Assembly (NCBI GenBank): GCA_001189165.1
Contig: LFCO01000003.1
Span: forward strand, 126,984-190,983
Source of the DNA: Parcubacteria bacterium C7867-005
GTDB taxonomy: Bacteria > Patescibacteriota > Minisyncoccia > Phycocordibacterales > Zambryskibacteraceae
Length of the DNA: 64,000 bases
Reading direction: 5' to 3'
The translations under genes and the position numbers were made by a program. A model generated the notes under the pieces. That model saw nothing but the letters and a program-made list of their open reading frames with translations, made no database searches and was not told the DNA's origin. This document shows, one piece after another, positions 32,049 to 64,000 of this stretch. The first letter of the stretch is position 1. Each line of letters opens with the position of its first letter.

Positions 32049-32115
32049 AATATCTATAATCTGAGAAACAGACTCAAATCTAGCAAATATAAGCAATTCT
32101 ATCAATTCTACTTTG

Positions 32116-32187
32116 TCGGGGCGCCGAGAATCGAACTCGGACCACATGCTCCCAAAGCAAGTATACTACCACTATACTACGCCCCGT
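32116..32187 (-). tRNA. tRNA-Pro (TGG) (one T-T mismatch in anticodon stem)
   Basis: Acceptor cggggcg/cgccccg, T-arm ccgag-ttcgatt-ctcgg, anticodon loop ttTGGga. Confidence 0.7.
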
Positions 32188-32311
32188 AAGAACGTATCCT
32201 AGCATGGTGAGCCCCTATTTCAAACCCAGGCTCGATTTTTTCATTCGAATACGCTATGATTTTCTTCACGCTTTGAGTTATTCGCGGGCTTGCCTGCCGA
32301 GCGTAACATAT

Positions 32312-32382
32312 GCGGGTATGGTTTAGTGGTAGAATGCGTCCTTGCCAAGGACGAGACGGGAGTTCGATTCTCCCTACCCGCA
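32312..32382 (+). tRNA. tRNA-Gly (GCC)
   Basis: gcgggta...cgtcc-ttGCCaa-ggacg...gggagttcgattctccc...tacccgc; anticodon GCC. Confidence 0.85.
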
Positions 32383-32404
32383 CATTTCGATATCTAGCTT
32401 TCTT

Positions 32405-32809
32405 TTAGATGATTATGTTTTCTAGTATTTCTACTCTGGCTACCCTGCTCTCCATCTGTATTTTGACTGTGACTATGTCCAATTGCCAATCAGAGTCGAC
32501 TCCCTTTTCCAGTAGATAGGTTTGAATCACTCTAGATAGACGTTTAAGTTTCTGTGGATGTACATTCTCCTCTGGCCTGTAAGCACCCATTGTTTCAGGT
32601 GTAACGTTTTGAAGTGTTGCACATGAAACACTTTTAACCTCAATAAATCTAAATACCCTACCTTTTTGAGCAATAATGTCTATTTCTCCCCATTTTCTAA
32701 GGTAATTTCTCTCAATAATCTTAAACCCCTTCTTTTCCAGGAAACTACAGGCAATATTTTCCCCCAGATCTCCAGTTTTTCTTTTTTCAGTTCGATTGTC
32801 CAGTTTCAT
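32405..32809 (-). CDS. YraN-family (UPF0102) endonuclease-like protein
   Basis: GEDIACSFLEKKGFKII..NYLRKWGEIDIIA...RFIEVK pattern of the YraN/UPF0102 family. Confidence 0.7.
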   Translation of the reverse strand: MKLDNRTEKRKTGDLGENIACSFLEKKGFKIIERNYLRKWGEIDIIAQKGRVFRFIEVKSVSCATLQNVTPETMGAYRPEENVHPQKLKRLSRVIQTYLLEKGVDSDWQLDIVTVKIQMESRVARVEILENIII

Positions 32810-33034
32810 GAATAACATTCTATAATAGTTTCACGTGAAATCAAACTATCAAAATATGGCTTAAAATAATGGACAAACAGTATTTGACTTATAAAACTGT
32901 CTTTTTAGTACCCAGTTTCCCCATAGTTATCCACAGATTGAGTCGTTTATGTTGTAATTCTCTTGATATGAAAGGATATTTCCATATTTCGTATGTTAGA
33001 GTCAGATTTCTAATGGACTTGTGAGGGACAAATT

Positions 33035-33320
33035 GAAAACCGCCTCGGGGGCGATCCCGGGCGGTGTGTCCAACTGGTGGACGGTCCAACGAATGGACAG
33101 AAAGATAGTTTCAGAGGAACGAGGTGGGGTAGGCGTACACTGTCGCAAAAAATAAATGAAGATTGGGGACAAGTAGCTTTCACCGGGTCTCGAACTGACC
33201 GAACACGTCTTTCGTGGAAGCAAGCTTGCTTCCGGTACTGATGCTTGAATTGTGCTTTGTTCAAACTCTCTTCAAGCGTCTGCAAACAGTATACTCCCAT
33301 AAGAGACAAAATTTATATTT
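33035..33320 (-). ncRNA. Candidate structured non-coding RNA of unassigned class, ending in an intrinsic terminator
   Basis: About 280-nt intergenic stretch, GC-richer than surrounding DNA, with multiple perfect hairpins (ggaagcaag/cttgcttcc; gtcca-ccagt-tggac; gcttgaa...ttcaagc). On the minus strand it ends in hairpin ccgcccgggatcgcccccgaggcgg followed by ttttcaattt. Overlapping six-frame ORFs lack protein-like composition. Confidence 0.35.
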
Positions 33321-47023: not shown

Positions 47024-47508
47024 GCATAACTATTTTTACTGACGGGTCATCGAAGGGGAATCCTGGACCTGGGGGGTGGGGGGCTATTGTGGCTTACACG
47101 GATAAGGTGGTTGAACTTGGGGGTAGAGAGGAACACACGACGAACAACCGTATGGAACTTTCCGCAGCGATCTATGCAATAGAGTCTTTAAAACAAAGCG
47201 AAGTAGCCACCATCTATTCTGATTCAACCTATGTGGTCAAAGGTATCACCGAGTGGATCCACGGTTGGCACAGAAACAATTGGAAAACAGCAGGCAAGAA
47301 ACCCGTAGAGAACAAAGATTTATGGTTGAGATTATTCGATGCTATCCAGAACAAAGACCTAAAATGGAAAGTGATACCTGGACATGCAGGTATCCATGCG
47401 AACGAACGCTGCGATGAGATCGCCACTTCTTTCGCTGATAATCTCCTTCCAGTTTTATATGATGGATCGAGAGCAGGCTATACCACCAAACTTGAAGTGA
47501 ATGGATAA
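47020..47508 (+). CDS. rnhA: Ribonuclease HI
   Basis: IFTDGSSKGNPGPGGWGA...NNRMEL...IYSDSTYVVKGI; overlaps recJ stop by 4 nt. Confidence 0.9.
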   Translation: MSITIFTDGSSKGNPGPGGWGAIVAYTDKVVELGGREEHTTNNRMELSAAIYAIESLKQSEVATIYSDSTYVVKGITEWIHGWHRNNWKTAGKKPVENKDLWLRLFDAIQNKDLKWKVIPGHAGIHANERCDEIATSFADNLLPVLYDGSRAGYTTKLEVNG

Positions 47509-48982
47509 AATAATAAGTAAGATAGAAAATACCCGGCACTCGGGTATTTTTGTTTTCTTGTGGAGTTTCATTATTGCCGTACTCTGTTCTTCTTTTATAA
47601 ATATCCTACCGATAATAAGTCTATGTCTGATGACCGTCGGGTTTTTAGGTTTTTTGTTTTTTAAATTTATAAAGATAGAAGCAAATATTTTAATCAGCTT
47701 GTTATTCCTAGTTATCTTCTCATTCGGTTTCGGAGCTCTGCGTTTTGAGATAAAAGATTATCATTTGTTGGATAAGAAATTCGAAGCATCATTAGAATCA
47801 AAAATAGAATTAGATGGCTTGGTTATAAGCGAGGTTGAAACCAGAGAGAGTGGCTCGAGATTTGTCTTAGATGTAGATGGACAGAAGATTTTGGTCAGCG
47901 CCAGAGATTTCTCTAATACAGAATACGGAGATCGGGTAGCGGTTACTGGCAAGCTCCAAAAGCCGGGGATTATAGAGAGTGATACGGGTAGAGACTTCGA
48001 CTACGGTGCCTATTTATCCAAGGATGATATTTATTACACCATGAGTTTCGCAGAGGTAGAGACCCTCTCCTCTGGTCACGGTAATTTTTTAAAATCTTTC
48101 CTCATCAAGATAAAAACAAAGTTCACAGACAGGATGAATACAATCTTGCCAGAACCAGAATCATCTTTACTTGCAGGTCTACTTGTCTCTGGTAAGCAGG
48201 CTCTACCCAAAAGCACACTCGAAGAATTTAAGAGAGCGGGGATAGTGCACATAGTCGTGCTCTCTGGTTATAACGTCACCATTATCGCAGAGTTTTTCCG
48301 CAAAATGTTTGGTTTGTTGTCTGTCCGATTTGCTTTGCCAGCATCAGTTGTTGGTATTGTCCTATTCACACTACTTACTGGTGCATCTGCTACCGTAGTC
48401 AGGGCGTCCATTATGGTGCTGATTGTATTGTTCAGTAAATCTCTTGGACGGACTTATTCTGTTGGACGGGCATTGCTTTTGGCCGGAGTGCTCATGGTTT
48501 TCCATAACCCAAAAATTTTGGTTTTTGATCCATCTTTCGAACTTTCTTTTATTGCTGTCCTCGCACTTGCATACATGAGCTCCTTAGCCGAAAAGTATCT
48601 CGGCAGTATTCCTCTGCAGTGGGGCATGAGGAGTATGTTGGCAACTATTATCAGCACTCAGGTTGCAGTTTTGCCATACCTGCTTTACTCGATGGGGAGT
48701 TTTTCTATGGTGTCTGTGTTCTCAAATACCCTGATCCTATTGTTCATACCTGTTACAATGCTCATTGGCTTTGCGGCTGTATCTCTGTCGTTTGTGGGTT
48801 TTTATCTGGCAATGCCATTTTCGTATTGCGCGCATCTCCTCCTAGAGTACATACTCTCGGTTGCTCACTATCTAGGTAATTTATCTTTTGCCAGTATCTC
48901 TGTGCCGATTTTCCCTTGGTGGTTAGCTGTTTTTATTTATTTAGTATTGATAGGTTTTGTTTATAATAGATCCAAGACTTAA
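47501..48982 (+). CDS. comEC: ComEC/Rec2-family DNA internalisation channel (DUF4131 plus Competence domain), lacking the C-terminal MBL domain
   Basis: Polytopic membrane protein with OB-like DUF4131 region and the Competence-domain motif (LLAGLLVSGKQALPKSTLEEFKRAGIVHIVVLSGYNV). Confidence 0.8.
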   Translation: MDKIISKIENTRHSGIFVFLWSFIIAVLCSSFINILPIISLCLMTVGFLGFLFFKFIKIEANILISLLFLVIFSFGFGALRFEIKDYHLLDKKFEASLESKIELDGLVISEVETRESGSRFVLDVDGQKILVSARDFSNTEYGDRVAVTGKLQKPGIIESDTGRDFDYGAYLSKDDIYYTMSFAEVETLSSGHGNFLKSFLIKIKTKFTDRMNTILPEPESSLLAGLLVSGKQALPKSTLEEFKRAGIVHIVVLSGYNVTIIAEFFRKMFGLLSVRFALPASVVGIVLFTLLTGASATVVRASIMVLIVLFSKSLGRTYSVGRALLLAGVLMVFHNPKILVFDPSFELSFIAVLALAYMSSLAEKYLGSIPLQWGMRSMLATIISTQVAVLPYLLYSMGSFSMVSVFSNTLILLFIPVTMLIGFAAVSLSFVGFYLAMPFSYCAHLLLEYILSVAHYLGNLSFASISVPIFPWWLAVFIYLVLIGFVYNRSKT

Positions 48983-50987: not shown

Positions 50988-51019
50988 AGTGGGAGTTATG
51001 CTAACATAAAACCACGAAC

Positions 51020-51637
51020 ATGCAACTCGAATTCATATTCCAGATAGCCATACTCATCATGTCTGTTGTTATCCATGAAGTTTCTCATGGGTATGCAGCC
51101 AGTCTCTTGGGGGACCAGACTGCCAGGTATCAAGGCAGGTTAACTCTCAATCCATTCAAACACTTGGAGATGGTGGGGTCGTTCTTTGTCCCACTTGTTT
51201 CTTATTTCTTTGGAGGTTTTATCTTTGGCTGGGCTAAGCCAGTACCCTATAACCCACACAATCTACGACCAGGTAGATGGTCTGAGGCAATAGTAGCCGG
51301 GGCTGGTCCAGCATCTAACCTTGTGCTGGCTATCATATTTGGCTTGGTTATTCGGTTTTCTGTGGCCTTGGGTATAGAAAATATGGCCTTTTTGCATGTC
51401 ACTGCCTTGGTGGTGTTTGTGAACCTGCTTCTCATGGTCTTTAACCTGGTCCCCATACCTCCACTAGACGGTTCAAAGCTACTTTTCGCCTGTTTTCCAC
51501 AGAAAATGTATCAAATTCGGGGTTTTTATGAGAGATACAGCCTGATACTGATACTTATCTTTATCTTCGTATTATGGGAATACATCGCCCCACTCGCCAC
51601 TTTAGCTTTCAGGATAATCACCGGCCTGTCCCTTTGA
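51020..51637 (+). CDS. Site-2 protease family (M50-like) intramembrane metalloprotease
   Basis: HExxH within the first TM (VIHEVSHGYAA); polytopic; LDG motif (PIPPLDGSKL). Confidence 0.75.
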   Translation: MQLEFIFQIAILIMSVVIHEVSHGYAASLLGDQTARYQGRLTLNPFKHLEMVGSFFVPLVSYFFGGFIFGWAKPVPYNPHNLRPGRWSEAIVAGAGPASNLVLAIIFGLVIRFSVALGIENMAFLHVTALVVFVNLLLMVFNLVPIPPLDGSKLLFACFPQKMYQIRGFYERYSLILILIFIFVLWEYIAPLATLAFRIITGLSL

Positions 51638-51704
51638 GGAACGTGTTGCTTGCGTTTTTGGGGGCTATTTAGTAGAGTAGTAGTCTCCTTTTGGAGGTTT
51701 TTTC

Positions 51705-52118
51705 ATGTCTACCATAAACCAGTTGGTCAAACGAAAAAGAAGCAAGGTCGCCAGGAAATCTAAGGCGATCGCTTTGACTCGTGGGTTTAATACAATTAAA
51801 AACCGACCAATCTACTTTAACTCTCCTTTCAAACGCGGTGTTTGTACCAAGGTGACTACAAAAACTCCAAAGAAACCTAACTCAGCTATTCGTAAAATCG
51901 CCCGTGTCCGCCTATCGAATGGCCATGAAGTAACCGCCTATATCCCTGGTGAGGGCCATAACCTACAGGAACACTCAGTCGTAGTTATCCGTGGTGGTCG
52001 TGTAAAGGACCTTGGAGTCAGATACACTATCGTTCGTGGACTTCTTGATGCACAGGGTGTAGAAAAGAGACGTCAGTCCAGAAGCCAATACGGTACCAAG
52101 AAACCAAAGGGTAAATAA
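51705..52118 (+). CDS. rpsL: 30S ribosomal protein S12
   Basis: Canonical S12 sequence ([10 protein letters not shown]...). Confidence 0.97.
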
Positions 52119-52126
52119 AATAAACC

Positions 52127-52597
52127 ATGCGACGCAAACTCAAAGCCAAAAAGCCTTTAACTCCTGATTCAGTTTATGAATCTGAAAAGATTACCAAGTT
52201 TGTTAACTATGTGATGCTCGAAGGCAAGAAGACTACTGCACGTGCAGTCGTCTATCGTGCTTTGGATGAGATTAAATCAAAAGCCAAAACAGAGAATCCG
52301 CTTGAGATTTTTGAGATGGCTTTGAAAAACACAGGTCCAACTATGGAAGTCAGATCAAGGAGAGTTGGAGGTGCAAACTACCAGATTCCTCGCGAAGTTA
52401 GACCAGAAAGGAGGCAGTTCCTCTCTATGAAATGGATCATAGAAGCTGCTCGTTTGAAGAAAGGTAAACCAATGCATGAGAAACTCGCAGAAGAAATCGT
52501 AGCCGCTTCAAACAACGAGGGTGATGCGGTGAAGAAGAGAGAGAATACTCACAAGATGGCAGATGCCAACAAGGCCTTCGCCCACTTCGCTTGGTAA
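52127..52597 (+). CDS. rpsG: 30S ribosomal protein S7
   Basis: Canonical S7; str operon order. Confidence 0.97.
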
Positions 52598-52664
52598 TTT
52601 TTTGTTAGAATTGTTTTATCCCCACGAGGGTTTTATTTTTTAGAGAATTATAAATTAATTATTT

Positions 52665-54830
52665 ATGGAACGAGATTATCCCCTAGAACGAGTTAGAAAC
52701 TTCGGTATTATCGCCCACATCGACGCGGGCAAGACCACAACCTCAGAGCGCGTGCTTTTTTATACTGGTGCTCAACACAGCATTGGTGAGGTGCACGAAG
52801 GGGAGACAACTACAGACTGGATGGAACAAGAAAGAGAGAGAGGTATCACCATCACCGCAGCAGCGATCACTTGTTTCTGGGCGCCTACGTATCTTTCAGC
52901 AACAGAGAGGTCCGATGCCAAAAAGAAATTCCGTTTTAACGTGATCGACACCCCAGGACACATCGACTTTACTGTAGAAGTGAAGAGATCCTTGCGCGTA
53001 CTCGACGGTGCAGTGGTGGTATTCGACGGCGTGGCCGGTGTTGAACCACAATCTGAAACTAACTGGCGTTATGCAGAGGACGCGAACGTTCCTCGTGTTT
53101 GTTTTATCAACAAGCTTGATCGAACTGGTGCATCGTTTGAACGTTCATACAAATCAATCCTCGACAGGCTTTCCAAGAAAGCAGTCCGTATGCAGATCCC
53201 TATTGGTGAAGAGGATAAGCACGAAGGTGTAGTGGATCTATTGAAAATGAAAGCGTACTACTTCGAGGGCAATATGGGTAATCAAGTTCTTGAGAAAGAC
53301 ATACCCGCAGACCTCCTTGAACAAGCAACTAAATACAGAGCAGAACTCGTAGAGAGAATAGTAGAGAATGACGAGGGACTCATGAATGCATACCTTGAGG
53401 GCAAGGAAATCTCTCTTGAAGCACTCAAAGAAACTCTCCGCAAAGCAGTGATAGGGAATAAAATTTTCCCTGTGTTCACTGGCTCTGCTTTGAAAAACAA
53501 AGGTGTACAGCTCGTACTCGATGCGGTTGTAGACTTCCTCCCATCTCCACTCGATATTCCTCCTGTAAAAGGTATCAATCCTGAAAATGGTGAAGAGGTC
53601 ATGAGGCATGCGAGTGATGCAGAACCTTTTGCTGCTCTCGCCTTCAAACTCCAAGCAGATCCATTCGTCGGACAACTTACTTTCTTCCGCGTGTATTCAG
53701 GAACAATAGAATCAGGAAGCTATATCTATAACTCCACCACTGGAGAGAAGGAGAGATTGGGTAGAATCGTGCGCCTCCAGGCGAATCAGCGCGAAGAAGT
53801 GAAAAAAGTTTTTGCCGGAGAGATCGCCGCAGCGGTGGGTCTAAAGAATGCTAAAACATCTCACACATTCTCTGATGAGACGAACGCAATCATCCTCGAC
53901 CAGATCACATTCCCTGAACCAGTTATCTCTTTGCGTATCGAACCAAAAACAAAAGCAGACCAAGAGAAAATGGGCTTTGCACTCAAGAGACTTTCGGACG
54001 AAGATCCAACTTTCAAAATCAAATCTGATTCAGAGACAGGAGAAACAGTGATCATGGGTATGGGTGAACTCCACCTTGAGATTATTGTTGATCGTATGAA
54101 GAGAGAGTTCAGCGTCGAAGCAAATGTCGGTAAACCACAAGTAGCTTATAAAGAAACGATCACCGGCGAAGCAGAAGTCGACAACAAATACGTCAAGCAA
54201 ACTGGAGGAAAGGGTCAGTACGGACACGTCAGGATCAAGATCAAACCACTTCCAAAATATGATCCAGAAGAAAAGGTTCCTAAAAATGCTCACCGAGAGG
54301 AAGGATTCGAGTTCATCGATTCTATCAAAGGAGGTGTTATTCCTCAAGAATTTATCCCTGCAGTAGAGAAGGGAGTGAAGGAAGCCATGGAACGCGGAAT
54401 ACTCGCAGGATACAAGATGGTGGACATATCTTGTGAATTGAATTTTGGATCGTACCATGATGTGGACTCTTCTGAAATCGCTTACAAGATCGCAGCTTCC
54501 CAGGCCTTTCAAGAGGCGGCCAAGAAGTCTAAACCAGTTATCCTCGAGCCAATTATGAGAGTCGAAGTAGTGGTCCCAGAAAAGTTCATGGGTGACATCA
54601 CTGGTAACCTTTCTGGTAAGCGTGGACAGATCGAAGCGATGGAAGATAGGGGAGACCTCAAGGTTATCCGTGCACAAGTGCCTCTATCAGAAATGTTCGG
54701 TTATGTGACAAACCTCCGTTCTATGACCGAAGGCCGTGGCTCTTCTACTATGGAATTCGATCACTATGCGATCGTGCCTCCAAACGTGGCTACAACTATC
54801 ATCGAACAGAGAACGGGAGGGAAGGCATAA
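52665..54830 (+). CDS. fusA: Elongation factor G
   Basis: G-domain motifs ([21 protein letters not shown]) and full EF-G length. Confidence 0.97.
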
Positions 54831-54900
54831 TTGATAAACTCAGGTAATTCTAGTAAACGGCCCAGCAGGGCTGTTTTTGCGATATTTAAGCTGAATATCC

Positions 54901-54929
54901 TTGACTTTGGGTATTTAGTATGCTATGAT
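54901..54929 (+). promoter_or_regulatory. Sigma70-like promoter P1 (TTGACT-17-TATGAT) driving the foreign GC-rich ORF
   Basis: ttgact 54901-54906, 17-nt spacer, tatgat 54924-54929; shares tccttgac and agtatgcta-Y-gat with the promoter at 63310. Confidence 0.5.
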
Positions 54930-54986
54930 TAGTGAGGATAGAGAAGTTCCGTTACATACCCCTTCCGGCCTAGAGCCAGAGAGCCC

Positions 54987-55634
54987 ATGAACCCGTTCCA
55001 GGCACTCCTCGAGAAGATCGACAGCAAGGTCGCCGAGGTCAAGCAGCTCTTCGCTGCGATCCTCCTGAACGCCGACATCGTCGTGGCCCGAGCCGAACTC
55101 GGGCGTGTCATCGAAGCCCTCAAGGGCTCGAACACGGCCGCAGACGAACGCAACGCGCGTTTCGTGGCTGCGGAAGCCGAGTGCGCGCTCGAGGAGCTCA
55201 ACCAGATGGAGCAGAAGTTCCTCATCTCCGCCTTCGCCGTCGACATGATGCGCAAGCGGATGGGCGGGCTCGATCCGGTCACTCTCGAACGCTACAAGAC
55301 GTCTCTGAGTGACCGGATCACCCGGTACGATGCCACCCGTTCGGGCAGGATGCCCGACACGTCCGAGCTCCGTCGCCAATTTCGTGCCTTCAAGGCAGAC
55401 ATGCGTCGGGCCGAGGCTGCGTCCATCCACTCGGTCGGGAAGAGAGCCCACAAGGCTCTTCTGACTCCCGAGATCGTGGGTGGTTCGACCGGCTCGAAGC
55501 CGGCCTCGCGCGAGAACAAGCAGCGGGCTCGAGACAAGAGCATCGCCCATCGCGCGATGATGGTCCGGACGAATCGCATCCGCTCCGGTGAGCAGGGCAA
55601 CAAGAAGGGAGTGAAGCAGAAGGCTTCGCGCTAG
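54987..55634 (+). CDS. Compositionally foreign (very high GC3) hypothetical protein, 215 aa, predicted helical with basic C-terminus
   Basis: ATG after a weak agagag SD; nearly every codon ends in G/C, unlike neighbouring host genes; own promoter and own strong terminator. The long antisense ORFs are the usual high-GC artefact. Confidence 0.6.
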   Translation: MNPFQALLEKIDSKVAEVKQLFAAILLNADIVVARAELGRVIEALKGSNTAADERNARFVAAEAECALEELNQMEQKFLISAFAVDMMRKRMGGLDPVTLERYKTSLSDRITRYDATRSGRMPDTSELRRQFRAFKADMRRAEAASIHSVGKRAHKALLTPEIVGGSTGSKPASRENKQRARDKSIAHRAMMVRTNRIRSGEQGNKKGVKQKASR

Positions 55635-55647
55635 ATTGGGGTAACAA

Positions 55648-55688
55648 GCCCCGCGGACGGTCCCACGGACCATTCGTGGGGCTTTTCG
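55648..55688 (+). terminator. Strong Rho-independent terminator ending the GC-rich cassette
   Basis: gccccgcg-gac-ggtcc-cac-ggacc-att-cgtggggc compound hairpin followed by ttttcg. Confidence 0.6.
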
Positions 55689-55710
55689 TATATAAAAGCC
55701 TTAAAAATCC

Positions 55711-55738
55711 TTGACTATTGCTCGCCCTTTGCTAAGAT
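55711..55738 (+). promoter_or_regulatory. tuf promoter (TTGACT-16-TAAGAT) with about 180-nt leader
   Basis: atccttgact...taagat; the same tccttgac -35 context as the two cassette promoters. Confidence 0.5.
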
Positions 55739-55920
55739 AGCCCTTACGCGTTATGTGCTGTTTTTCTTTGGCTCTTTGAGACTCAATCTTAATAGACCGA
55801 ATGAAATATGGCTTTATTGCGTACTTATCCGTTTGTTGATCAGAGAGAGCAAATGTTCTCGCGCGCTCTCTCGGTTCAAAAAACAATTTACTTAAATTAC
55901 TAATAAATCTTACTAATTTT

Positions 55921-57114
55921 ATGGCAGCAGAATTCAACCGTTCCAAGCCTCACCTCAACGTCGGTACCATCGGACACGTTGACCACGGCAAGACGACCCT
56001 CACAGCAGCTATCTTGAACGTGCTTCACCGCGCGGGCAAAGTAGCCACAGTGAAGTCAGTTGGAGATATCGACAAGAGTCCTGAAGAAAAGGCTCGTGGT
56101 ATCACCATCTCCCTTTCCCACAGTGAATATGAGACAGACGCTCGTCACTACGCACACGTCGACGCTCCTGGACACGCAGACTATATCAAGAACATGATCA
56201 CCGGTGCCGCTCAGATGGACGGTGCGATCCTCGTGGTTGCAGCGACTGACGGTGTGATGCCACAGACACGTGAACACATCCTCCTTGCAAAGCAAGTTGG
56301 AGTTCCAAAGATCATCGTTTTCTTGAACAAGTGCGACATGGTTCCTGATAAAGAACTTATCGACCTAGTCGAAGAAGAAGTACGTGATCTCTTGAAGAAA
56401 TATGAATTTGACGGAGAAAACGCTCCTATCATCCGTGGTTCAGGCCTCAAAGCCCTCGAAGCTACAGGTATAGATGACGAATGGTCAAAGAAAGTTCTTG
56501 AATTGACTGATGCTTTGGACACTTACTTCCCAATCCCTGTTCGTGAAGTAGACAAGCCATTCCTCATGCCTATTGAAGACATCTTCTCTATCGAAGGTCG
56601 AGGTACAGTGGTTACTGGTCGTATCGAAAGAGGTACTGTCAAAGTTGGTGAAGAAGTAGAAATCGTCGGTATCGAAGCTACACAGAAAACTACAGTTACC
56701 GGTATCGAGATGTTCAACAAACAACTCCAGGACGGTAGAGCAGGAGACAACGCAGGTATCCTCCTCCGCGGTGTTAAGAAAGAAGATCTACACCGAGGAC
56801 AGGTTATCGCCAAGGTTGGTTCAGTAACTCCTCATACAGAATTCACAGCAGAAGTTTACATCCTCAAAAAGGAAGAAGGTGGTAGACACACTCCATTCTT
56901 CACCGGATACAAACCACAGTTCTACATCCGTACAACTGATGTGACCGGAGAAGTGACTCTAGCCGAAGGTGTAGAGATGGTTATGCCAGGAGACACAGTG
57001 ACATTCAAGGTTAAACTTGTTGCCCCTGTCGCTCTCGAGGATCAGACCAGATTTGCTATCCGTGAAGGAGGCAAGACTGTGGGTGCTGGAGTGGTAACAA
57101 AGGTTATCGCCTAA
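55921..57114 (+). CDS. tuf: Elongation factor Tu
   Basis: [25 protein letters not shown] motifs; 397 aa. Confidence 0.97.
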
Positions 57115-57135
57115 ACAAAAGACTACGTACCTTAC

Positions 57136-57522
57136 ATGACCAAGGAAACACACAAAGAGGTAAAAGAGAAAAAGCCAAAGGCCAAAGCTACTAAAGTAGC
57201 CAAGACCGAGGACGGCGTAGGGATGCTCCGCATCCGAGTCCGGGCTTATGAATCTAAGATCTTGGATGTTTCTGTGAAGCAGATTATCGACACAGCACTC
57301 CGCTACGATGCAGAAGTGCAGGGACCGATACCTCTACCAACAGAGATCAAGAAATATACAGTGAACCGTGCTGCATTCGTATACAAAAACGCGCGAGAAC
57401 AGTTTGAGATGCGAATACACAAACGACTCATTGATATCAAGAATCCAACTCCAAAGATCATAGAATCTCTCACTAATCTCAGTCTTCCTTCGGGAGTGAA
57501 CATAGACGTGAAGCTGGTTTAA
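57136..57522 (+). CDS. rpsJ: 30S ribosomal protein S10 (with possible Lys-rich N-terminal extension; alternative start near 57223)
   Basis: [15 protein letters not shown]...GPIPLPT is the S10 core; the preceding 29 residues are Lys-rich. Confidence 0.9.
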
Positions 57523-57559
57523 TCCGGTTGATACAGCAAGACTGCATTCAGAAAATAAA

Positions 57560-58177
57560 ATGAAATTCCTTCTAGCCAAAAAAGTAAATATGACCCAGGT
57601 GTTCGATGAAAAGGGGATGACCTATCCAGTCACCGTCCTTTTGGCTACCCCGAACACGGTCATCGCACTCAAAGATGTGACCAGAGATGGATACAAAGCA
57701 GTTCAAGTAGGTTTTGGTGAAAAGCGCGAGAAGAATATCACTAAGCCAAGACTTGGACAGATGGGCGGTGCAAAACATTCTCATCTCAGAGAATACAGAA
57801 CGGATGATGCTGACTTGGCTCTAAAGGTCGGAGATGCACTCGACCTCACTCAATTCAAGGAAGGGGACACTGTATCTGTCATGGCAATCTCCAAAGGTAA
57901 GGGTTTCCAGGGCGTTGTTAAGAGACACAAGTTCAAAGGTGGACGCCGTTCACACGGTCAGAAGCACTCTGAGCGTGAGCCGGGTTCTATCGGTGGAGGA
58001 GGTCGTGCAGGAGGTCGTGTAGCCAAAGGTATGCGCATGGCTGGTAGAATGGGAGGCGATCGTGTTACAGTATCAAACCTAAAAGTGATCAAAGTTTTGC
58101 CTGAGACAGGCGAGATCATGATCCATGGCGCAGTCCCCGGACGAAGAGGAACAGTGGTAGAGATCAAATCAAAATAA
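57560..58177 (+). CDS. rplC: 50S ribosomal protein L3
   Basis: Canonical L3 (KGKGFQGVVKRHKFKGG). Confidence 0.95.
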   Translation: MKFLLAKKVNMTQVFDEKGMTYPVTVLLATPNTVIALKDVTRDGYKAVQVGFGEKREKNITKPRLGQMGGAKHSHLREYRTDDADLALKVGDALDLTQFKEGDTVSVMAISKGKGFQGVVKRHKFKGGRRSHGQKHSEREPGSIGGGGRAGGRVAKGMRMAGRMGGDRVTVSNLKVIKVLPETGEIMIHGAVPGRRGTVVEIKSK

Positions 58178-58182
58178 ATTTT

Positions 58183-58914
58183 ATGGAAGCCAAGGTCTAT
58201 ACAATCAAAGCCAAAGAGGCAAATACCATCTCACTCCCAGAGGGCCTCTTCGGTTTGAATTGGAATTCAGACTTGGTTCACCAGGTGGCTACTTCACTTG
58301 AATCTGCAAAGCGTAAGCCAATAGCTCATACTAAAAACCGAAGCGAAGTTCGCGGAGGAGGCAAGAAACCTTGGCAGCAGAAGGGTACTGGACGTGCTAG
58401 ACACGGTTCTATCCGCTCACCACTTTGGGTTGGTGGAGGTATAACTCACGGTCCAAGAAACGAAAAAAACTTTGACCGCAAGGTTTCAAAGAAAATGAAA
58501 GCCAAGGCTTTCTACACCATCCTCTCGAGGAAGTTCAAAGATGGCGAGATACTCTTTGTAGACTCTATCGCTCTATCTATGCCCAAAACCAAAGAAGCTA
58601 TCGGCGCACTCAAAGGACTCTCCGGTGTTAAGGGATTTGAAAATCTTTTCACCAAGAAAAACAATTCTGCTATCATCGCCCTCGCAGACAAAAACCAAAA
58701 TGTAGAACGCTCTATGTCTAACCTCGGTAACATGGAAGTGCTCGAAGCTCGTAACCTCCATCCACTTGCTTTGCTCAAATATAAATATCTCATCATCGAA
58801 AACCCAAGCAAATCACTCGAACTTCTCCCAGGAAATAATATTTTTGCCAAAGAGAAAGTAGCTAAGGTAGCAAAGAAGACAACTACTAAGGCCAAGAAAG
58901 TAGTCAAAGCATAA
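58183..58914 (+). CDS. rplD: 50S ribosomal protein L4
   Basis: KPWQQKGTGRARHGSIRSPLWVGGG motif. Confidence 0.95.
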   Translation: MEAKVYTIKAKEANTISLPEGLFGLNWNSDLVHQVATSLESAKRKPIAHTKNRSEVRGGGKKPWQQKGTGRARHGSIRSPLWVGGGITHGPRNEKNFDRKVSKKMKAKAFYTILSRKFKDGEILFVDSIALSMPKTKEAIGALKGLSGVKGFENLFTKKNNSAIIALADKNQNVERSMSNLGNMEVLEARNLHPLALLKYKYLIIENPSKSLELLPGNNIFAKEKVAKVAKKTTTKAKKVVKA

Positions 58915-58915
58915 T

Positions 58916-59209
58916 ATGAAAACTGCACCGATAAACAACACCACAGTGCTCAAAAGACCTCGTATCACCGAGAAGGCGGCTTTGAAGGCGGACAGTATGA
59001 ACGTTTACACTTTTGAAGTGAACAAAGATGCGACCAAGAAGCAGGTTATAGCCAGTATCAAAGATGCATACAAAGTCACTCCAAAGAGTGTCAGACTACT
59101 CGCGATCCCTCGCAAAGAAGTTTTCCGCAGGGGCAAGAGTGGTGTGACCGGTGGAGGCAAAAAAGCCTATGTGTACCTAAAGAAGGGCGATAAGATCGAA
59201 GTAATGTAA
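58916..59209 (+). CDS. rplW: 50S ribosomal protein L23
   Basis: Canonical L23; S10-operon order. Confidence 0.95.
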   Translation: MKTAPINNTTVLKRPRITEKAALKADSMNVYTFEVNKDATKKQVIASIKDAYKVTPKSVRLLAIPRKEVFRRGKSGVTGGGKKAYVYLKKGDKIEVM

Positions 59210-59213
59210 TTTT

Positions 59214-60053
59214 ATGAAACGATACAGACCAACATCTCCATCCAAAAGACAGGAATCAAAAGTTGAATTCAAAAAATTCATCACTAAATCCGAACCTTTA
59301 AAATCCTTGACCAAAGGTTTTCGTCGAGCGAACGGACGCAACAACACTGGGCGTATTACCACTCGCCACAAAGGAGGCGGACACAAGAGACTCTTTAGAG
59401 ATATAGATTTTACATACAACAAGATAGACGTGCCTTTCACTGTTAAGACAGTCGAATATGATCCAAACAGATCTGGATTCATCGGTCTCGTCGCTTATAA
59501 AGACGGAGAGAGACGATATGCACTTCTACACAAGAGTGCTCGAGTAGGAGATGTATACATCGCCTCAGAAACTGCACCGATCACTCCGGGGAACAGACTC
59601 CCATTGTCCAAGATCACTGTCGGTACTTTTGTTTACAACGTAGAGCTCAAGCCAAGAGGTGGAGCCAAGATCGCTCGTTCGGGTGGTAACTATGTAGAAG
59701 TTGTTGCCAAGGATGGTGGCTATGTAGACCTGAAGATGCCTTCAAGCGAAGTTCGCAAAGTTCTAGAGACTGCTTGGGCCACTGTCGGTGAAGTATCAAA
59801 TGATGAGAACAGACTGACTAACCTCGGCAAGGCGGGGAGGTCTCGTTGGCTCGGTATCCGTCCAACGGTCCGTGGTACAGCGATGAACCCAGTAGACCAC
59901 CCACACGGCGGAGGAGAGGGCAGACAGGGTCGAGGACGCAGAAGGGCTATCTCTATCTACGGCAAGCCAACAGGCAAAGGACAGAAGTCTCGCCGTTCAA
60001 AGAAATATTCAAACAAACATATTGTCCGCAGACGAAAAGTCGGCAAGAAATAA
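59214..60053 (+). CDS. rplB: 50S ribosomal protein L2
   Basis: GRNNTGRITTRHKGGGHKR and PHGGGEGR motifs. Confidence 0.95.
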   Translation: MKRYRPTSPSKRQESKVEFKKFITKSEPLKSLTKGFRRANGRNNTGRITTRHKGGGHKRLFRDIDFTYNKIDVPFTVKTVEYDPNRSGFIGLVAYKDGERRYALLHKSARVGDVYIASETAPITPGNRLPLSKITVGTFVYNVELKPRGGAKIARSGGNYVEVVAKDGGYVDLKMPSSEVRKVLETAWATVGEVSNDENRLTNLGKAGRSRWLGIRPTVRGTAMNPVDHPHGGGEGRQGRGRRRAISIYGKPTGKGQKSRRSKKYSNKHIVRRRKVGKK

Positions 60054-60059
60054 AAAACA

Positions 60060-60085
60060 AAACTCGCCCTCAGGCGGGTTTTTTG
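60060..60085 (+). terminator. Rho-independent terminator immediately after rplB
   Basis: ctcgcc-ctca-ggcggg hairpin followed by tttttt. Confidence 0.55.
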
Positions 60086-60098
60086 GTATATTCAAGGC

Positions 60099-60620
60099 AT
60101 GCAACAACTTGATAAAAAAGCAGTCTGGTTATTTTTTATAGGCTCTATGTTTGGATGGGTCTTCTTTGGAGTTTTTCTCTCTATCTGGGGGGCCAGTATC
60201 TCTGGTGAGATGTTTAGCGGTTCGATGACTTTTAACGGACAGCCAGTGAACCCGTTAGCGTTTATGTGGTTTGCAGTAAAAACTGTTGTCGCTCTGCTCT
60301 TAATCCTCTCTTATATTTGGGCACGTCTCTCGTATCGTTTTTATAGATACGAACTCAGAGATAATGGATTCAGGAAGGAGTCAGGCGTGATCTATAAAAG
60401 TTATGTCACCATACCTTATGACCGTATCCAGAATGTAGATGTGTATCGAGGAATCCTCGCACGCATGCTTGGGCTTTCTGATTTACATATCCAAACAGCG
60501 GGAGCAGGTACAATGCTCGGCGAAGGTAGACTACCAGGCCTTTCACATGAGGTCGCAGAACAACTCCGAGATGAACTCATCAACCGTTCACGTGCCTCTA
60601 GAACGGGCCAGGGTTTATAG
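60099..60620 (+). CDS. Bacterial PH-domain (bPH_2 / YdbS-like) membrane protein
   Basis: Two N-terminal TM helices then PH-like region (YRYELRDNGFRKESGVIYKSYVTIPYDRIQNVDVYRGILARMLGLSDLHIQTAG). Confidence 0.75.
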   Translation: MQQLDKKAVWLFFIGSMFGWVFFGVFLSIWGASISGEMFSGSMTFNGQPVNPLAFMWFAVKTVVALLLILSYIWARLSYRFYRYELRDNGFRKESGVIYKSYVTIPYDRIQNVDVYRGILARMLGLSDLHIQTAGAGTMLGEGRLPGLSHEVAEQLRDELINRSRASRTGQGL

Positions 60621-60624
60621 TTGA

Positions 60625-60778
60625 CTTTCCTCAAATTTGGTATAAAGTAGGGCACGTAAGGTCAAAGACAGAAGGTGGCGCAAGCCTTAATCATGCCTTC
60701 CGAGATCACTCTCAAACGCACTTCGGTGTAGTCGAGACCTTATAGAGGTCGTTTTTTTTGTTCGTTAATTTATAAATT
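60625..60778 (+). promoter_or_regulatory. Ribosomal protein L10 leader region with promoter-like TTGACT...TATAAA and an attenuator hairpin
   Basis: Structured 150-nt leader before rplJ ending in gacct-tatag-aggtc followed by eight T, consistent with the L10(L12)4 autoregulatory leader of Gram-positive-type genomes. Confidence 0.5.
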
Positions 60779-61267
60779 ATGGCAATATCAAGAGCCAAAA
60801 AAGGAGAGATAGTAGACAAGCTTCAAGGAGCCCTCAAGGGTGCCAAGTCGCTCGTCTTCGTCAACTTTCATGGCCTCAAGGTTTCTGATGCCACAGCCAT
60901 GCGCCGTTCCCTCAAAGCAGAGGGCGTCTCATACGCAGTGACAAAGAAATCTTTGACCAAACGAGTATTAGCTGATGAGAAATTCGAAGGCACTTTGCCT
61001 GAACTCACCGGCGAACTCGCGATGGCTTGGTCAGACGACCTGATCGCACCAGCGAGAGGCGTCTATGGTTACCAAAAGAAATTCCCAGAGGGCCTCAAGA
61101 TCCTCGGCGGAGTTTTCGAAGGCCGCTACATGACTAAGGCAGAGATGGAAGGAATCGCCACGATCCCTACCACCAATGTTCTACGAGGAATGTTTGTTAA
61201 CATCATAAATTCTCCAATACAGCGTTTCGCGATCGCGCTCGGTCAGATTGCAGAGAAGAAAGCTTAG
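60779..61267 (+). CDS. rplJ: 50S ribosomal protein L10
   Basis: Canonical L10 N-terminus (KKGEIVDKLQGALKGAKSLVFVNFHGLKV). Confidence 0.95.
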   Translation: MAISRAKKGEIVDKLQGALKGAKSLVFVNFHGLKVSDATAMRRSLKAEGVSYAVTKKSLTKRVLADEKFEGTLPELTGELAMAWSDDLIAPARGVYGYQKKFPEGLKILGGVFEGRYMTKAEMEGIATIPTTNVLRGMFVNIINSPIQRFAIALGQIAEKKA

Positions 61268-61293
61268 TCAGTTATCAGTAACAAATTAATACA

Positions 61294-61698
61294 ATGGATG
61301 AAACAAAAGTTGCTACAGAAGAAGTAGCAGTCCCTGCCAAGTTCGCGAAGATCGTGAAGGAGATCGAAGAGATGTCCGTCCTCGATTTGAACGAATTGGT
61401 CAAAATATTCGAAGCTAAGTTCGGAGTTTCTGCAGCCGCAGTCGCAGCAGGCCCTGCTGCAGGTGCCGCTCCAGCCGAAGAGGCCAAGAGCACAGTAGGC
61501 GTAGAGCTCACTGATGGTGGTGCGAATAAAATCGCGATCATCAAGATAGTCAAAGAAGTCCTCGCCCTTGGATTGAAAGAGGCCAAGGACCTCGTAGATG
61601 CAGCCCCTTCTATGCTCAAAGCAGATATGAAGATGGAAGAAGCTACAGAGCTTAAGAAGAAAATCGAAGAAGCCGGAGGCAAGGTTACTTTCAAGTAA
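61294..61698 (+). CDS. rplL: 50S ribosomal protein L7/L12
   Basis: Ala-rich hinge and C-terminal domain ([27 protein letters not shown]...[13 protein letters not shown]). Confidence 0.95.
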
Positions 61699-61720
61699 TA
61701 AACCCCCTAATTCTAGAATC

Positions 61721-61747
61721 AAAAACCCTGCTATTGCGGGGTTTTTG
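61721..61747 (+). terminator. Rho-independent terminator after rplL
   Basis: ccctgc-tatt-gcgggg hairpin followed by ttttt. Confidence 0.55.
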
Positions 61748-61809
61748 ATTGGACTACGCACCTTTTGGGCGAGGTAGTCAATTAGTGCAGGAGGGGCTTT
61801 CTATGTAGA

Positions 61810-62379
61810 ATGGGCAAAAAGATGAAATCGGTATCCCACATATTTGGAGGAGAGGCCAAGGTCAAGATAATGCGTCTTTTCATATTTAACCCAGAGACTA
61901 TTTATGACACGAATACTGTCTCTGAACGCTCCCAAGAAAATCGAACATTGGTTGCGCGCGAACTCCGCAAACTCGGACAGTCTGGACTCATTAGAAAAAA
62001 GAGTAAAGGTTGGGCTCTAAACCCTTCGTATCCGTACATCAAAGCACTAGAACATTTCTTTATTGATGCTAGTCCGATAACTGAAAAAGAAATCGTAAAG
62101 AAATTATCCAGAGCGGGGACAATCAAACTGGTTTTAATTTCTGGAGTTTTCCTACACGACACCGAGGCGAGGGTAGATTTATTGGTAGTAGGGGATCATC
62201 TAAAGAGGGGTTTGCTCGTCCATGCCATAGGCAGCATAGAGGCAGTTTTAGGAAGGGAGATACGCTACGCTTCCTTTGAGACAGCAGATTTTCAATACAG
62301 ATTAGGGCTATACGACAAGCTAGTTAGGGATATCCTCGACTTTAACCACAAAAAGATCGTCAACAAGCTCGCAGTGTAG
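61810..62379 (+). CDS. Hypothetical protein with possible N-terminal winged-helix region
   Basis: 189 aa; RLFIFNPETIYDTNTVSERSQENRTLVARELRKLGQSGLIRKK looks like a wHTH; no catalytic motif recognised. Confidence 0.45.
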   Translation: MGKKMKSVSHIFGGEAKVKIMRLFIFNPETIYDTNTVSERSQENRTLVARELRKLGQSGLIRKKSKGWALNPSYPYIKALEHFFIDASPITEKEIVKKLSRAGTIKLVLISGVFLHDTEARVDLLVVGDHLKRGLLVHAIGSIEAVLGREIRYASFETADFQYRLGLYDKLVRDILDFNHKKIVNKLAV

Positions 62380-62509
62380 CTTTCCTATCCACAGGCCATC
62401 TCAAAAAACCTTTAAATACTAGTGCGAGGTGTATAATAAGTTATACCCCTATTTGAGTGGTAACAATTATAAGTAAAGTGCATTTGCACGAGCTTTCAGT
62501 CAAGAATAT

Positions 62510-63205
62510 ATGATTATGAATACTTGGGGACAGATTTTGACAGCTTCGTTCCAAGATCTTTGGTACGGAGTTATTAACTTTGTTCCAAACTTGGTAGTCG
62601 CTATTATCATCGTTGTTTTAGGATGGCTCATCGGCGCACTCTTTGGTCGAGCTATCTGGCAGGTGTTCCGTTCACTTCGCGTGGACGAAGCTCTTCGCCG
62701 AGCAGGATTTGAGACATTCCTCCGCAGAGGAGGCTTGAACCTCGATTCTGGTGCTTTCATCGGTGGTTTGGTCAAGTGGTTTGTGATCTTGGTTTTCCTC
62801 ATGGCTTCATTCGAAGTTTTGGGTCTAGATCAAGTTAACCTCTTCCTCAAAGATGTGGTTATCGCTTACCTTCCTCGTGTGATCGTAGCTGCCCTCATAC
62901 TCCTAGTTGGAGGTGTGATCGGTGACATAACAGATCGTGTTGTTGTCACTGCAGCTAAGACAGCCGAAGTTAGATCAGCTCATTTCTCTGGCACAGTAGC
63001 CAAGTGGGCAATCTGGATTGTCGCTCTCCTCGCCGCTCTTTCACAGCTCGGCATTGCAGCAGCATTCAGCCAGACACTCTTTACTGGAGTAGTTATCGCC
63101 ATCTCTCTTGCCCTCGGCCTTTCATTCGGCCTCGGTGGTCAAGAAGCAGCAGGAAAGTTCCTAGAACGTCTTCGTGGAGACATGAGTGACAAGAACCACG
63201 GCTAA
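62510..63205 (+). CDS. Conserved TM-helix-repeat membrane protein (two internal repeats)
   Basis: Two similar TM pairs each followed by an amphipathic basic segment (GALFGRAIWQVFRSLRVDEALRRAG... and GDITDRVVVTAAKTAEVRSAHF...); host-like composition. Confidence 0.55.
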   Translation: MIMNTWGQILTASFQDLWYGVINFVPNLVVAIIIVVLGWLIGALFGRAIWQVFRSLRVDEALRRAGFETFLRRGGLNLDSGAFIGGLVKWFVILVFLMASFEVLGLDQVNLFLKDVVIAYLPRVIVAALILLVGGVIGDITDRVVVTAAKTAEVRSAHFSGTVAKWAIWIVALLAALSQLGIAAAFSQTLFTGVVIAISLALGLSFGLGGQEAAGKFLERLRGDMSDKNHG

Positions 63206-63240
63206 CCAGAGGTATCAGCTAGATAATACCGAGGATAGCT

Positions 63241-63270
63241 CAAAACCCCCGCTCTGGCGGGGGTTTTGTT
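63241..63270 (+). terminator. Rho-independent terminator
   Basis: cccccgc-tctg-gcggggg hairpin followed by tttt. Confidence 0.6.
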
Positions 63271-63309
63271 ATATGGCTCTATGTATGGATATTTGGTTCA
63301 TAAATCTCC

Positions 63310-63338
63310 TTGACAAAGGGGTTAGAGTATGCTACGAT
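63310..63338 (+). promoter_or_regulatory. Sigma70-like promoter P3 (TTGACA-17-TACGAT) driving the second foreign GC-rich ORF
   Basis: ttgaca 63310-63315, 17-nt spacer, tacgat 63333-63338; spacer/-10 nearly identical to P1 at 54901 (gg.t..ag-agtatgcta-Y-gat). Confidence 0.5.
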
Positions 63339-63402
63339 CAATACAGATAGGCGAATGCCTACTGCAGTACCTCTCATCTCTACTCCTTCAAGGAGCTCTT
63401 AC

Positions 63403-63982
63403 CGTGACGAGCATCGCACCGCAGGTTCGCATCGGCATCAATCTCGCCGATGAGGAGCACATCCTGTTCAAGATCACCCTCTCCAACAAGAGCCTGGTTC
63501 CCGCGGGCATCCGCGAGATCGAGCGCGAGTCGGACAAGGTCATCGACCGGCGTAACGCCGACAAGGCGATCGCCGCAGGCAACGCTCGTGTGGCGACGGT
63601 CGGACGAGTTCGTCCGGGACGTGTCGATACCGGCAAGCCGATCTTCCAGAACGTGGAGCGCGTGCGCGTTTCGCTCGTCCGGGGAATCCTGGCTCGCAAG
63701 GGCTTCCGCCTCGCCGACGCGCACTTCTTCGTTCGGAACGACGGCAAGGCCGTGCTCGTCCTCTCCCTCATGAAGGGACGGGACACGCTGGAGCTCCCGC
63801 GTGCGACGGTCGAGGCGATCCGGGCCATGGCCCGTGACAACGTCTGGACCGCGGACATGTGGGAGAACGTCGACAACGCGACCCTGAACTTCCGTGCGCG
63901 TCAGCAGGGTTCGGCGAAACAGTCGATCACGGTCGACGATGACATGCTCATGATGGTCGACGGCGACCTCGCGGTCGAGTAG
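63403..63982 (+). CDS. Compositionally foreign (very high GC3) hypothetical protein, about 193 aa, GTG start
   Basis: aaggag SD 8 nt upstream of GTG at 63403; codons almost uniformly G/C-ending; stop TAG at 63980-63982. Sequence after the stop continues to the window end, so a downstream partner gene cannot be excluded. Confidence 0.55.
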
Positions 63983-64000
63983 AGGAAGACGCCCGTACAT

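Follow-up and report, generated by a model that had tools for sequence, protein, structure and literature searches.

A GC-rich gene between fusA and tuf of a Parcubacterium is probably the resident copy of a clade-specific, exchangeable expression cassette

Between the translation genes fusA and tuf, the genome of Parcubacteria bacterium C7867-005 carries a short GC-rich gene with its own promoter and terminator. We analysed this unit within a 64,000-nucleotide stretch of contig LFCO01000003.1 (hereafter the window). A first-pass annotation had described the gene, an open reading frame (ORF) of 215 codons that we call ORF215, as foreign, and had offered recent acquisition from a high-GC donor, a chimera or an engineered insert as explanations. 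We find that the ORF215 unit (about positions 54900–55690) is probably no recent import from outside the clade but one resident example of an expression cassette that is specific to the clade and exchanged horizontally within it. Zambryskibacteria-like Parcubacteria possess two intergenic hot spots in the ribosomal-protein supercluster, each occupied by one to three monocistronic units. Hot spot 1 is the fusA–tuf gap, and hot spot 2 the interval after a mechanosensitive (MS)-channel gene and before truD or rpsS. Each unit consists of a strong sigma-70 promoter with extended −10 element, a short 5' untranslated region (5'UTR), often with a stem-loop abutting the Shine-Dalgarno sequence, a GC-rich ORF and an intrinsic terminator. 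The C7867-005 genome, a 564-kb metagenome-assembled genome (MAG) of 42% GC from the Hanford aquifer, was described in 2015 in a paper that leaves GC islands unmentioned (PMC4508563). No account of such cassettes was found in the searchable literature.

Results

Anatomy of the unit between fusA and tuf

The window has a GC content of 43.0% (300-nucleotide windows: mean 0.430, s.d. 0.046), and GC exceeds 0.56 in two stretches only, 54901–55750 (peak 0.65) and 63301–64000 (peak 0.67). The first contains ORF215 (54987–55634, plus strand), which we class as a type-A cassette gene. It has 63.3% GC, with 0.63, 0.45 and 0.82 at the first, second and third codon positions, whereas third-position GC (GC3) is 0.45 in fusA, 0.46 in tuf and 0.41–0.49 in seven ribosomal-protein genes. 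The contrast between a GC-rich frame and its AT-richer surroundings, noted in the first-pass annotation, is therefore real. The conserved upstream flank is fusA (52665–54830, plus strand), encoding a 721-amino-acid EF-G with EF-G Pfam domains. Downstream, the conserved flank is tuf (55921–57114, plus strand), whose EF-Tu product shares 93–94% amino-acid identity with those of two relatives, L056 and L006.

The cassette-1 promoter (54901–54929, plus strand) comprises a −35 element TTGACT, a 17-nucleotide spacer and an extended −10 element TGcTATGAT. It scores 10/12 with the TG motif and ties with the promoter of a second cassette, described below, as the best sigma-70-like site in 51000–64000. 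The 64 kb contain the pattern TTGAC-N14/15-TGNTANNAT at cassette 1, tuf and cassette 2 and nowhere else, and the spacer of the cassette-1 promoter is nearly identical to that of the hot spot 2 promoter of another genome, L007. A stem-loop in the 5'UTR, GGC-CTAGA-GCC, is directly followed by a Shine-Dalgarno-like AGAGAG (54967–54983, plus strand), an arrangement that recurs in relatives. The N-terminus of ORF215 aligns with the MNRFEKLL of its homologues. Downstream of the ORF, a nested hairpin GCCCCGCGGA...TTCGTGGGGC followed by TTTT (55648–55686, plus strand) forms the type-A terminator, the strongest terminator-like site in 51000–64000, which aligns with 11 terminators of other cassettes. 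The tuf promoter (TTGACT-16-TAAGAT with TG; 55711–55738, plus strand) follows. Both the dedicated promoter and the strong terminator of the first-pass annotation were thus recovered. Its fusA terminator fared less well: a short hairpin GGCCC-AGCA-GGGCT with a T-run does lie 3' of fusA (54859–54878, plus strand), as read from the sequence, but it is weak and absent from the output of a consensus terminator scan. Analogous hairpins are found upstream of cassette promoters in L007, L002 and other loci.

On the minus strand, a 252-amino-acid ORF (54915–55673) overlaps the whole of ORF215. We rejected it as a gene. Its codon adaptation index (CAI), 0.485, is the lowest in the window, it is unconserved in the related genome L004, and it lacks stop codons because its first codon position faces the third position of the sense frame, with a GC content of 0.82. 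Its nature as a shadow of GC3-rich sense coding had been missed in the first-pass annotation, as had the second cassette (63310–63982).

A second cassette at hot spot 2

The upstream edge of hot spot 2 is marked by the terminator of the MS-channel gene (CCCCCGC-TCTG-GCGGGGG-TTTT; 63246–63267, plus strand), and backbone homology ends close to it, at 63229 in comparison with L056 and at 63274 in comparison with L006. The cassette-2 promoter (TTGACA-17-TACGAT with TG; 63310–63338, plus strand) is identical to the cassette-1 promoter at 24/32 positions, and both share ...AGTATGCTAyGAT. It precedes ORF217 (63404–63982, plus strand), a type-B cassette gene of 192 amino acids with a GC3 of 0.80. The GTG start lies 8 nucleotides downstream of AAGGAG (63390–63395); the ATG annotated as its start (63329) overlaps the −10 element and is probably a misannotation. 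Inside the window cassette 2 spans 63310–63982, its own terminator lying beyond the window end.

ORF189 (61810–62379), a clade-specific backbone gene adjoining hot spot 2, has no Pfam match and matches the PADLOC candidate-defence family PDC-M05A (E = 6.8e-15).

Cassettes and backbone disagree

L056 is the closest relative of the window, with backbone proteins 76–93% identical and DNA 82% identical. In blastn comparisons with it, homology stops at 54838, 8 nucleotides past the fusA stop codon, and resumes at 55728 inside the tuf promoter; with L006, it stops at 54819 and resumes at 55697. The variable segment (54839–55727), which contains the whole cassette, has no DNA homology to these closest relatives. 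The placement of the unit between fusA and the tuf promoter, without disruption of either, is as the first-pass annotation had described it. In place of this segment L056 has 1.77 kb with three ORFs, and its members of the ORF215 and ORF217 families reach only 33% and 24% identity with those of the window. L006 has a backbone as close as that of L056, yet carries unrelated ORFs at both sites. In L003, by contrast, the backbone is more distant (59–84%), and a type-A cassette at hot spot 2 encodes a protein 53% identical to ORF215. This unit and the window's hot spot 1 unit share 66–74% nucleotide identity in two alignment blocks, one running from the promoter (54914) into the ORF and the other covering the 3' end of the ORF and the terminator to 55686.

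Identity at fourfold-degenerate sites, taken as the fraction of identical third bases at conserved residues, gave a similar picture. Between the window and L003 it was 0.48 for the cassette and 0.38 for the backbone (MS-channel gene). Between the window and L056 the order was reversed, with 0.48–0.50 for the cassettes and 0.55–0.59 for tuf and the MS-channel gene, except for ORF189 (0.38). This comparison relies on pairwise and fourfold-site identities in a few genomes, not on a formal tree. Because cassette and backbone disagree, and because the units occupy different sites in different genomes, we conclude that units are exchanged within the clade; judging from the alignments, the moving entity would be the whole stretch from promoter to terminator.

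The same data bear on strictly vertical inheritance, in which the cassettes would have descended from the clade ancestor with very fast evolution and without exchange between lineages. Synteny is indeed kept over deep divergence: ORF217 and P0003, its homologue in L002, are 46% identical and the adjoining truD is 51% identical, and members of the ORF215 family occupy the fusA–tuf gap of the window, L004, L005, L008 and L056. However, the closest genomes hold the most divergent cassettes and a more distant genome holds the most similar one, at hot spot 2 instead of hot spot 1 and with nucleotide homology from promoter to terminator. The fourfold-site identities point the same way, and one slot holds unrelated ORF families. 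We therefore consider purely vertical descent unlikely.

Cassettes in related genomes

A HMMER search of 1.84 billion cluster representatives returned 9 proteins for ORF215 at E ≤ 1e-3, its own cluster included. The other eight clusters are 25–53% identical. In a word-indexed search of 5.8 billion proteins ORF215 retrieved itself only, and a profile search of the same 5.8 billion yielded 9 clusters for the ORF217 family. Every contig with an ORF215 homologue and enough context was Parcubacteria-like. The ORF215 family is small and found only in Zambryskibacteria-like Parcubacteria, at hot spot 1 or 2. P0006 lies directly 3' of fusA and P0005 3' of fusA plus a bPH_2 gene, both on contigs that end before the position of tuf. 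P0004, the closest homologue (53%), and P0010 sit 3' of the MS-channel gene, that is, at the site of the window's cassette 2. ORF217 homologues occupy this same site in L002, L007, L013, L032 and L056. In L002 the layout is that of the window (terminator, promoter, ORF, terminator, truD on the minus strand, rpsS), and P0003 has about 58% GC between flanks of 38% GC.

With ORF189 as bait we collected 52 loci. They come from species representatives of GTDB that bear the labels Zambryskibacteria, Parcubacteria or Minisyncoccia. The promoter pattern occurred in them almost exclusively at the two hot spots and at the tuf and rpsS promoters. The quantitative cassette set consisted of 19 exported regions and further loci, about 20 loci in all, and contained 25 cassette ORFs with a GC3 of 0.59–0.88 in host genomes of about 38–52% GC. 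Most of the ORFs have about 190–230 codons, a few ranging from 138 to 281. They belong to at least 8 unrelated families built around one common chassis. Type A is a variable slot, filled by the ORF215 family and by three other families or singletons; type B comprises the ORF217 family and a distant subfamily; type C, of about 115 amino acids and likewise GC-rich, lies 3' of type A at hot spot 1 in some genomes and is missing from the window. Examples of type C are found in L056 (2937–3293) and L008 (2763–3107), and also downstream of the ORF215-family gene in L004 and L005.

The non-coding parts are conserved across these unrelated genes. One kind of terminator, CCCCAC...GTGGGG, brackets unrelated GC-rich ORFs of type A; its CCCC/GGGG clamp is invariant, three pairs of the inner stem show compensatory changes, and G-U pairs are tolerated. 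The 5'UTR element GGC(C)-N3-5-(G)GCC-(A/G)GAGG, with covarying stems, is present in L002, L003, L005, L006, L007, L008 and L056. The only close pair, L028 and L058, shows 2 non-synonymous and 0 synonymous differences, too few for an informative dN/dS.

A more distant relative, whose contig was recovered in three independent samples (L060, 6001–9154; also L061 and L062), has four consecutive genes without Pfam match in hot spot 2, between the MS-channel gene and rpsS and with no truD: P0010, a 215-amino-acid ORF, a 335-amino-acid AT-rich ORF and a 211-amino-acid ORF217-like ORF.

The survey of related genomes that the first-pass annotation had suggested thus found the same kind of insert at the same two sites of this Parcubacteria clade. 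This bears on its leading explanation, in which a high-GC source outside the lineage (Actinobacteria-like, Proteobacteria-like, phage or plasmid) would recently have supplied a gene that landed by chance between fusA and tuf. In favour of such a donor are the 63% GC against 43%, the GC3 of 0.82, a usage rich in NCG and CTG codons that host genes almost lack, and the missing DNA homology of 54839–55727 to the closest relatives. However, every detectable homologue belongs to this clade and occupies one of the two hot spots, and promoter, 5'UTR and terminator are typical of the clade and common to cassettes with other ORFs. Scans of viral contigs with ORF215, ORF217 and a B-family alignment, tblastn against phage and plasmid records, and a comparison with BFVD folds gave no match. 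Metagenome-contig scans with an alignment of ORF215 and P0004 and with ORF189 gave no match either, and likewise missed the source sample. Homologues diverged to 25–53% identity are mostly still GC-rich; the trait must therefore either be ancient or undergo renewal inside the clade. An outside donor is improbable, and this explanation is already largely refuted. Of the label 'foreign gene', horizontal exchange within the clade remains, and a source outside it does not. Lineage homologues of similar GC, which the first-pass annotation had named as evidence that would speak against its reading, are essentially what the clade contains.

GC-richness and codon usage

TCG, ACG and CCG make up 48–70% of the Ser, Thr and Pro codons in both GC-rich ORFs of the window, compared with about 5% in its translation genes, and AAG makes up 96% of the Lys codons compared with 49% in host genes. 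Measured against the window's translation genes, the CAI is 0.57 for ORF215 and 0.57–0.58 for the two cassette genes together; the median of the window is 0.60, and tuf reaches 0.84. GC at fourfold sites of conserved residues is 0.59–0.85 in the cassettes (about 0.8 in the two of the window) and 0.21–0.41 in tuf, the MS-channel gene and ORF189. The GC enrichment is mainly synonymous and is common to most homologues, even where synonymous sites approach saturation. In L032 and L060 it is less pronounced, and one gene lacks it.

Two causes were considered and set aside. Translational optimisation was rejected as the source of the high GC3 because tuf and the ribosomal-protein genes, with a GC3 of about 0.45, lack the bias and avoid NCG codons. 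Selection on messenger RNA structure can be a partial explanation at best: folding of the transcripts against shuffled controls gave z-scores of −7.6 (cassette 1) and −3.2 (cassette 2), and these negative values are largely due to the terminator and to coding periodicity.

GC content within the clade ranges from about 38% (L002) to about 60% (L043), which bears on where GC-rich cassettes could originate. High GC would be kept by one of two processes: GC-biased conversion at a recombination hot spot, or repeated re-supply from GC-richer members of the clade, where most of the pool would reside, combined with amelioration. The GC-rich extreme, L043 (1–8184), is a clade member with about 58–60% GC throughout and without a cassette 3' of the MS-channel gene.

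Cassette proteins

ORF215, ORF217 and six other cassette proteins retrieved nothing from Pfam, PHROGs or PADLOC, in agreement with the first-pass annotation, which had found no assignable motif in ORF215. An AlphaFold2 model of ORF215 reached a predicted local distance difference test (pLDDT) score of 83, and above 90 for most of residues 1–150. Because this was obtained from only 9 sequences, ORF215 can be taken as a real protein. In the model, residues 1–160 are predicted to form an all-helical bundle and residues 160–215 a disordered polybasic tail that contains one helix, which matches the helical product with a basic C-terminus proposed initially. Structural neighbours were generic only, with no informative sequence or fold match in Pfam, PHROGs, PADLOC or the PDB. 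The model of ORF217 had a pLDDT of 74 and no PDB neighbour.

The C-terminal parts connect otherwise unrelated proteins. A tail module, ...KRL.DA.IR...K/R-rich...S/T-A, is common to ORF215 and the otherwise unrelated hot spot 1 protein of L006. In L032 (2490–3822) the unrelated A and B proteins end in one peptide (...KGREILALLSA and ...RGLEILKSLSG), and the same holds for L060 (6739–9154), with ...RKGLELVSRLSA and ...RKGLELIRKLMAS. Most cassette proteins end in S/T/A-A. These common peptides may serve as a targeting or degradation signal, and for the C-terminus of ORF215 the data point to a nucleic-acid anchor, a targeting signal or a degron. We lean weakly, and with clearly less than even confidence, towards binding of nucleic acid or the ribosome by the tail.

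Two type-B genes have an unusual structure. The type-B protein of L007 (11552–12118) is a circular permutant of ORF217, aligning in two separate BLAST segments; the motif 'LVKF..N..VPAGI..R', N-terminal in ORF217, is placed at its C-terminus. In L009 the type-B gene is broken up into neighbouring ORFs of 90 and 89 amino acids (11494–12035, corresponding to positions 135–676 of the region L009:11360–12420), and may be a frameshifted pseudogene or a sequencing error.

These protein data speak against a GC-rich segment that is non-coding, a structured RNA or DNA element in which the ORF would be incidental. The folding z-scores of both cassettes and the long ORFs on both strands could be read in this way. 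However, much of the z-score comes from the terminator hairpin, and the antisense ORF is a predictable shadow. GC at the three codon positions is typical of coding sequence, the protein is conserved while synonymous sites are nearly saturated, and the fold is predicted with confidence. Rfam has no family in either cassette. A non-coding element is hence very improbable.

Finally, an assembly or binning chimera or a laboratory insert, to which the sharp compositional boundaries and the tidy promoter–ORF–terminator design might be ascribed, is most improbable: independent MAGs and contigs of other studies, from NCBI, ENA, JGI and Logan, show the same architecture, with GC-rich cassettes flanked by AT-richer fusA/tuf or ribosomal-protein genes; the exact ORF215 protein is found on two long contigs, one of 199 kb from JGI (sample 3300001199) and one of 258 kb from NCBI (hypothetical protein AB200_02595 of Parcubacteria bacterium C7867-005); and the source is an environmental metagenome of an uncultured aquifer organism with diverged natural homologues in many samples.

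Discussion

Our results favour a resident, clade-specific cassette that is exchanged between members of the clade. Replacement of units would proceed by homologous recombination after DNA uptake, via the very conserved flanking genes, the shared chassis or both. This mechanism is the most economical one that we can infer because no integrase or transposase is encoded within 10 kb and a ComEC gene is nearby; the genes within 10 kb on either side encode RecJ, RNase H, ComEC, Sod, MBL, ribosomal proteins, EF-G, EF-Tu, truD and similar functions. ORF215 would be highly expressed. Its product is predicted to be a cytoplasmic helical-bundle protein, the tail of which might bind nucleic acid or the ribosome or act as a targeting or turnover signal.

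A fuller scheme can be drawn, which we put forward tentatively and would sooner bet against than for. It holds that the cassettes are exchanged without a recombinase, with the chassis as portable homology arms for transformation and homologous recombination at the two hot spots. The co-occurring A and B (and C) proteins would diversify fast and work where the cell meets its host or phages, their C-terminal targeting peptides would be specific to each genome, and the persistent GC3 of about 0.8, next to genes with about 0.3 at fourfold sites, would be a footprint of GC-biased conversion or of selection on the transcript.

Several observations weigh against the idea of a clade-wide exchangeable cassette. 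A cassette, or a GC island, is missing from many of the 52 loci, L018 and L043 among them, so that the distribution is patchy; neither L018 nor the ~60% GC L043 carries a cassette at hot spot 2. P0010 in L060 is not GC-rich, and GC-richness is thus not universal. The survey followed one promoter pattern through about 20 loci and is short of a full phylogeny. Within 10 kb on either side of the unit there is no recombinase, repeat-bounded element or mobility gene, and the mechanism of exchange is one that we infer.

Among known systems, phage morons come closest in anatomy. Morons, as described by Hendrix and Juhala, are autonomous promoter–gene–terminator units of atypical composition between conserved genes. 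The cassettes share with them the dedicated promoter and terminator, the deviant composition, the clean insertion between conserved genes and the patchy occurrence among relatives. Unlike morons, they lie in a bacterial chromosome between translation genes, with no phage genes nearby, no PHROG match and no viral homologues. Moreover, they keep a conserved non-coding chassis around unrelated ORFs, and morons are not defined by such a property.

In population behaviour the better comparison is with hypervariable loci that are replaced by homologous recombination, such as the pneumococcal cps locus between dexB and aliA, O-antigen loci and hypervariable region 2 (HVR2) of SAR11. As in these loci, the breakpoints at the conserved flanks are sharp, close relatives have unrelated content, the content is incongruent with the backbone, and the lineage carries the competence gene ComEC. 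Unlike cps-type loci, the cassettes are single small genes instead of biosynthetic clusters, they have a portable conserved promoter and terminator, and they are GC-richer, not AT-richer, than the genome.

Integron cassettes also have variable ORFs in a fixed slot, a conserved imperfect 3' palindrome, a possible tandem arrangement and a high content of ORFans. However, no IntI integrase or attI lies within 10 kb on either side, and every unit brings an extended −10 promoter with it, whereas most integron cassettes lack a promoter and depend on Pc for expression. Integron attC sites have RYYYAAC/GTTRRRY cores and work as folded single-stranded DNA; the 3' palindrome described here is an intrinsic terminator, because it has CCCCAC/GTGGGG arms and a T-run and tolerates G-U pairs. 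A GTTRRRY core was not seen by eye in 55634–55710. By analogy, then, the cassette appears to work like a moron in its anatomy and like a core-flanked hypervariable locus in its population behaviour, and its resemblance to integrons seems superficial. In the strict sense it is neither an integron cassette nor a moron.

Two further comparisons are looser. Compared with a classical island of horizontal gene transfer (HGT), cassette 1 has the atypical composition and codon usage. It is not absent from relatives, and no donor lineage outside the clade was found; no integrase or transposase Pfam domain occurs within 10 kb, the nearest tRNA genes lie at 31863–32383, and flanking direct repeats were not searched for. 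The VirB/D4 substrates of Agrobacterium are effectors with positively charged C-terminal translocation signals. Like them, ORF215 combines a variable, fast-evolving N-terminal domain with a conserved polybasic tail, and the tail is also attached to the unrelated N-terminal domain in L006. Unlike in VirB/D4 effectors, the promoter is strong and looks constitutive, and the likeness is a lead only.

Bacteria of the candidate phyla radiation (CPR), whose genomes are very small and streamlined, are generally regarded as living on other cells; little is known of their variable genes and how these are exchanged. In the present case, hypervariable and clade-restricted genes with strong promoters reside in the genome's most conserved neighbourhood, which makes their products candidate factors of the host or phage interface, and the fusA–tuf/ribosomal locus would be a natural landing pad. 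The conserved promoter and terminator could serve as parts for the emerging genetics of Patescibacteria. The cassettes keep a GC3 of about 0.8 in most homologues, only some hundred bases away from genes at about 0.3, and so offer a clean natural test case for GC-biased conversion, for transfer followed by amelioration and for selection at synonymous sites. For annotation pipelines the lesson is that neither recent HGT nor contamination has to lie behind a sharply bounded GC island with 'foreign' codon usage. The cassettes are best described as a variant of the hot-spot and moron-like cassette theme in an understudied lineage.

Other features of the window

The 5'UTR of tuf (55739–55920) is about 180 nucleotides long, and from the promoter on its DNA is conserved with L006 and L056. 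This conservation suggests a leader element; Rfam gave no match for the tuf 5'UTR.

Around hot spot 2 the S10 operon is split (60054–64000 in the window; 15113–20648 in L001), with rpsS following only after truD on the minus strand. The order after rplB is a bPH_2 membrane protein gene, an L10-leader-like RNA, rplJ, rplL, ORF189, the MS-channel-like gene, cassette 2 and truD (minus strand). The L10-leader-like RNA (60644–60767) scored 34.6 bits against RF00557, under the gathering score of 44.

GC is lowest (below 0.33) in stretches of the window that start at about 7451, 32601–33301 and 47501–47551. Just upstream of the second of these lies a cluster of four tRNA genes, Arg-TCG, Gly-TCC, Pro-TGG and Gly-GCC (31863–32383).

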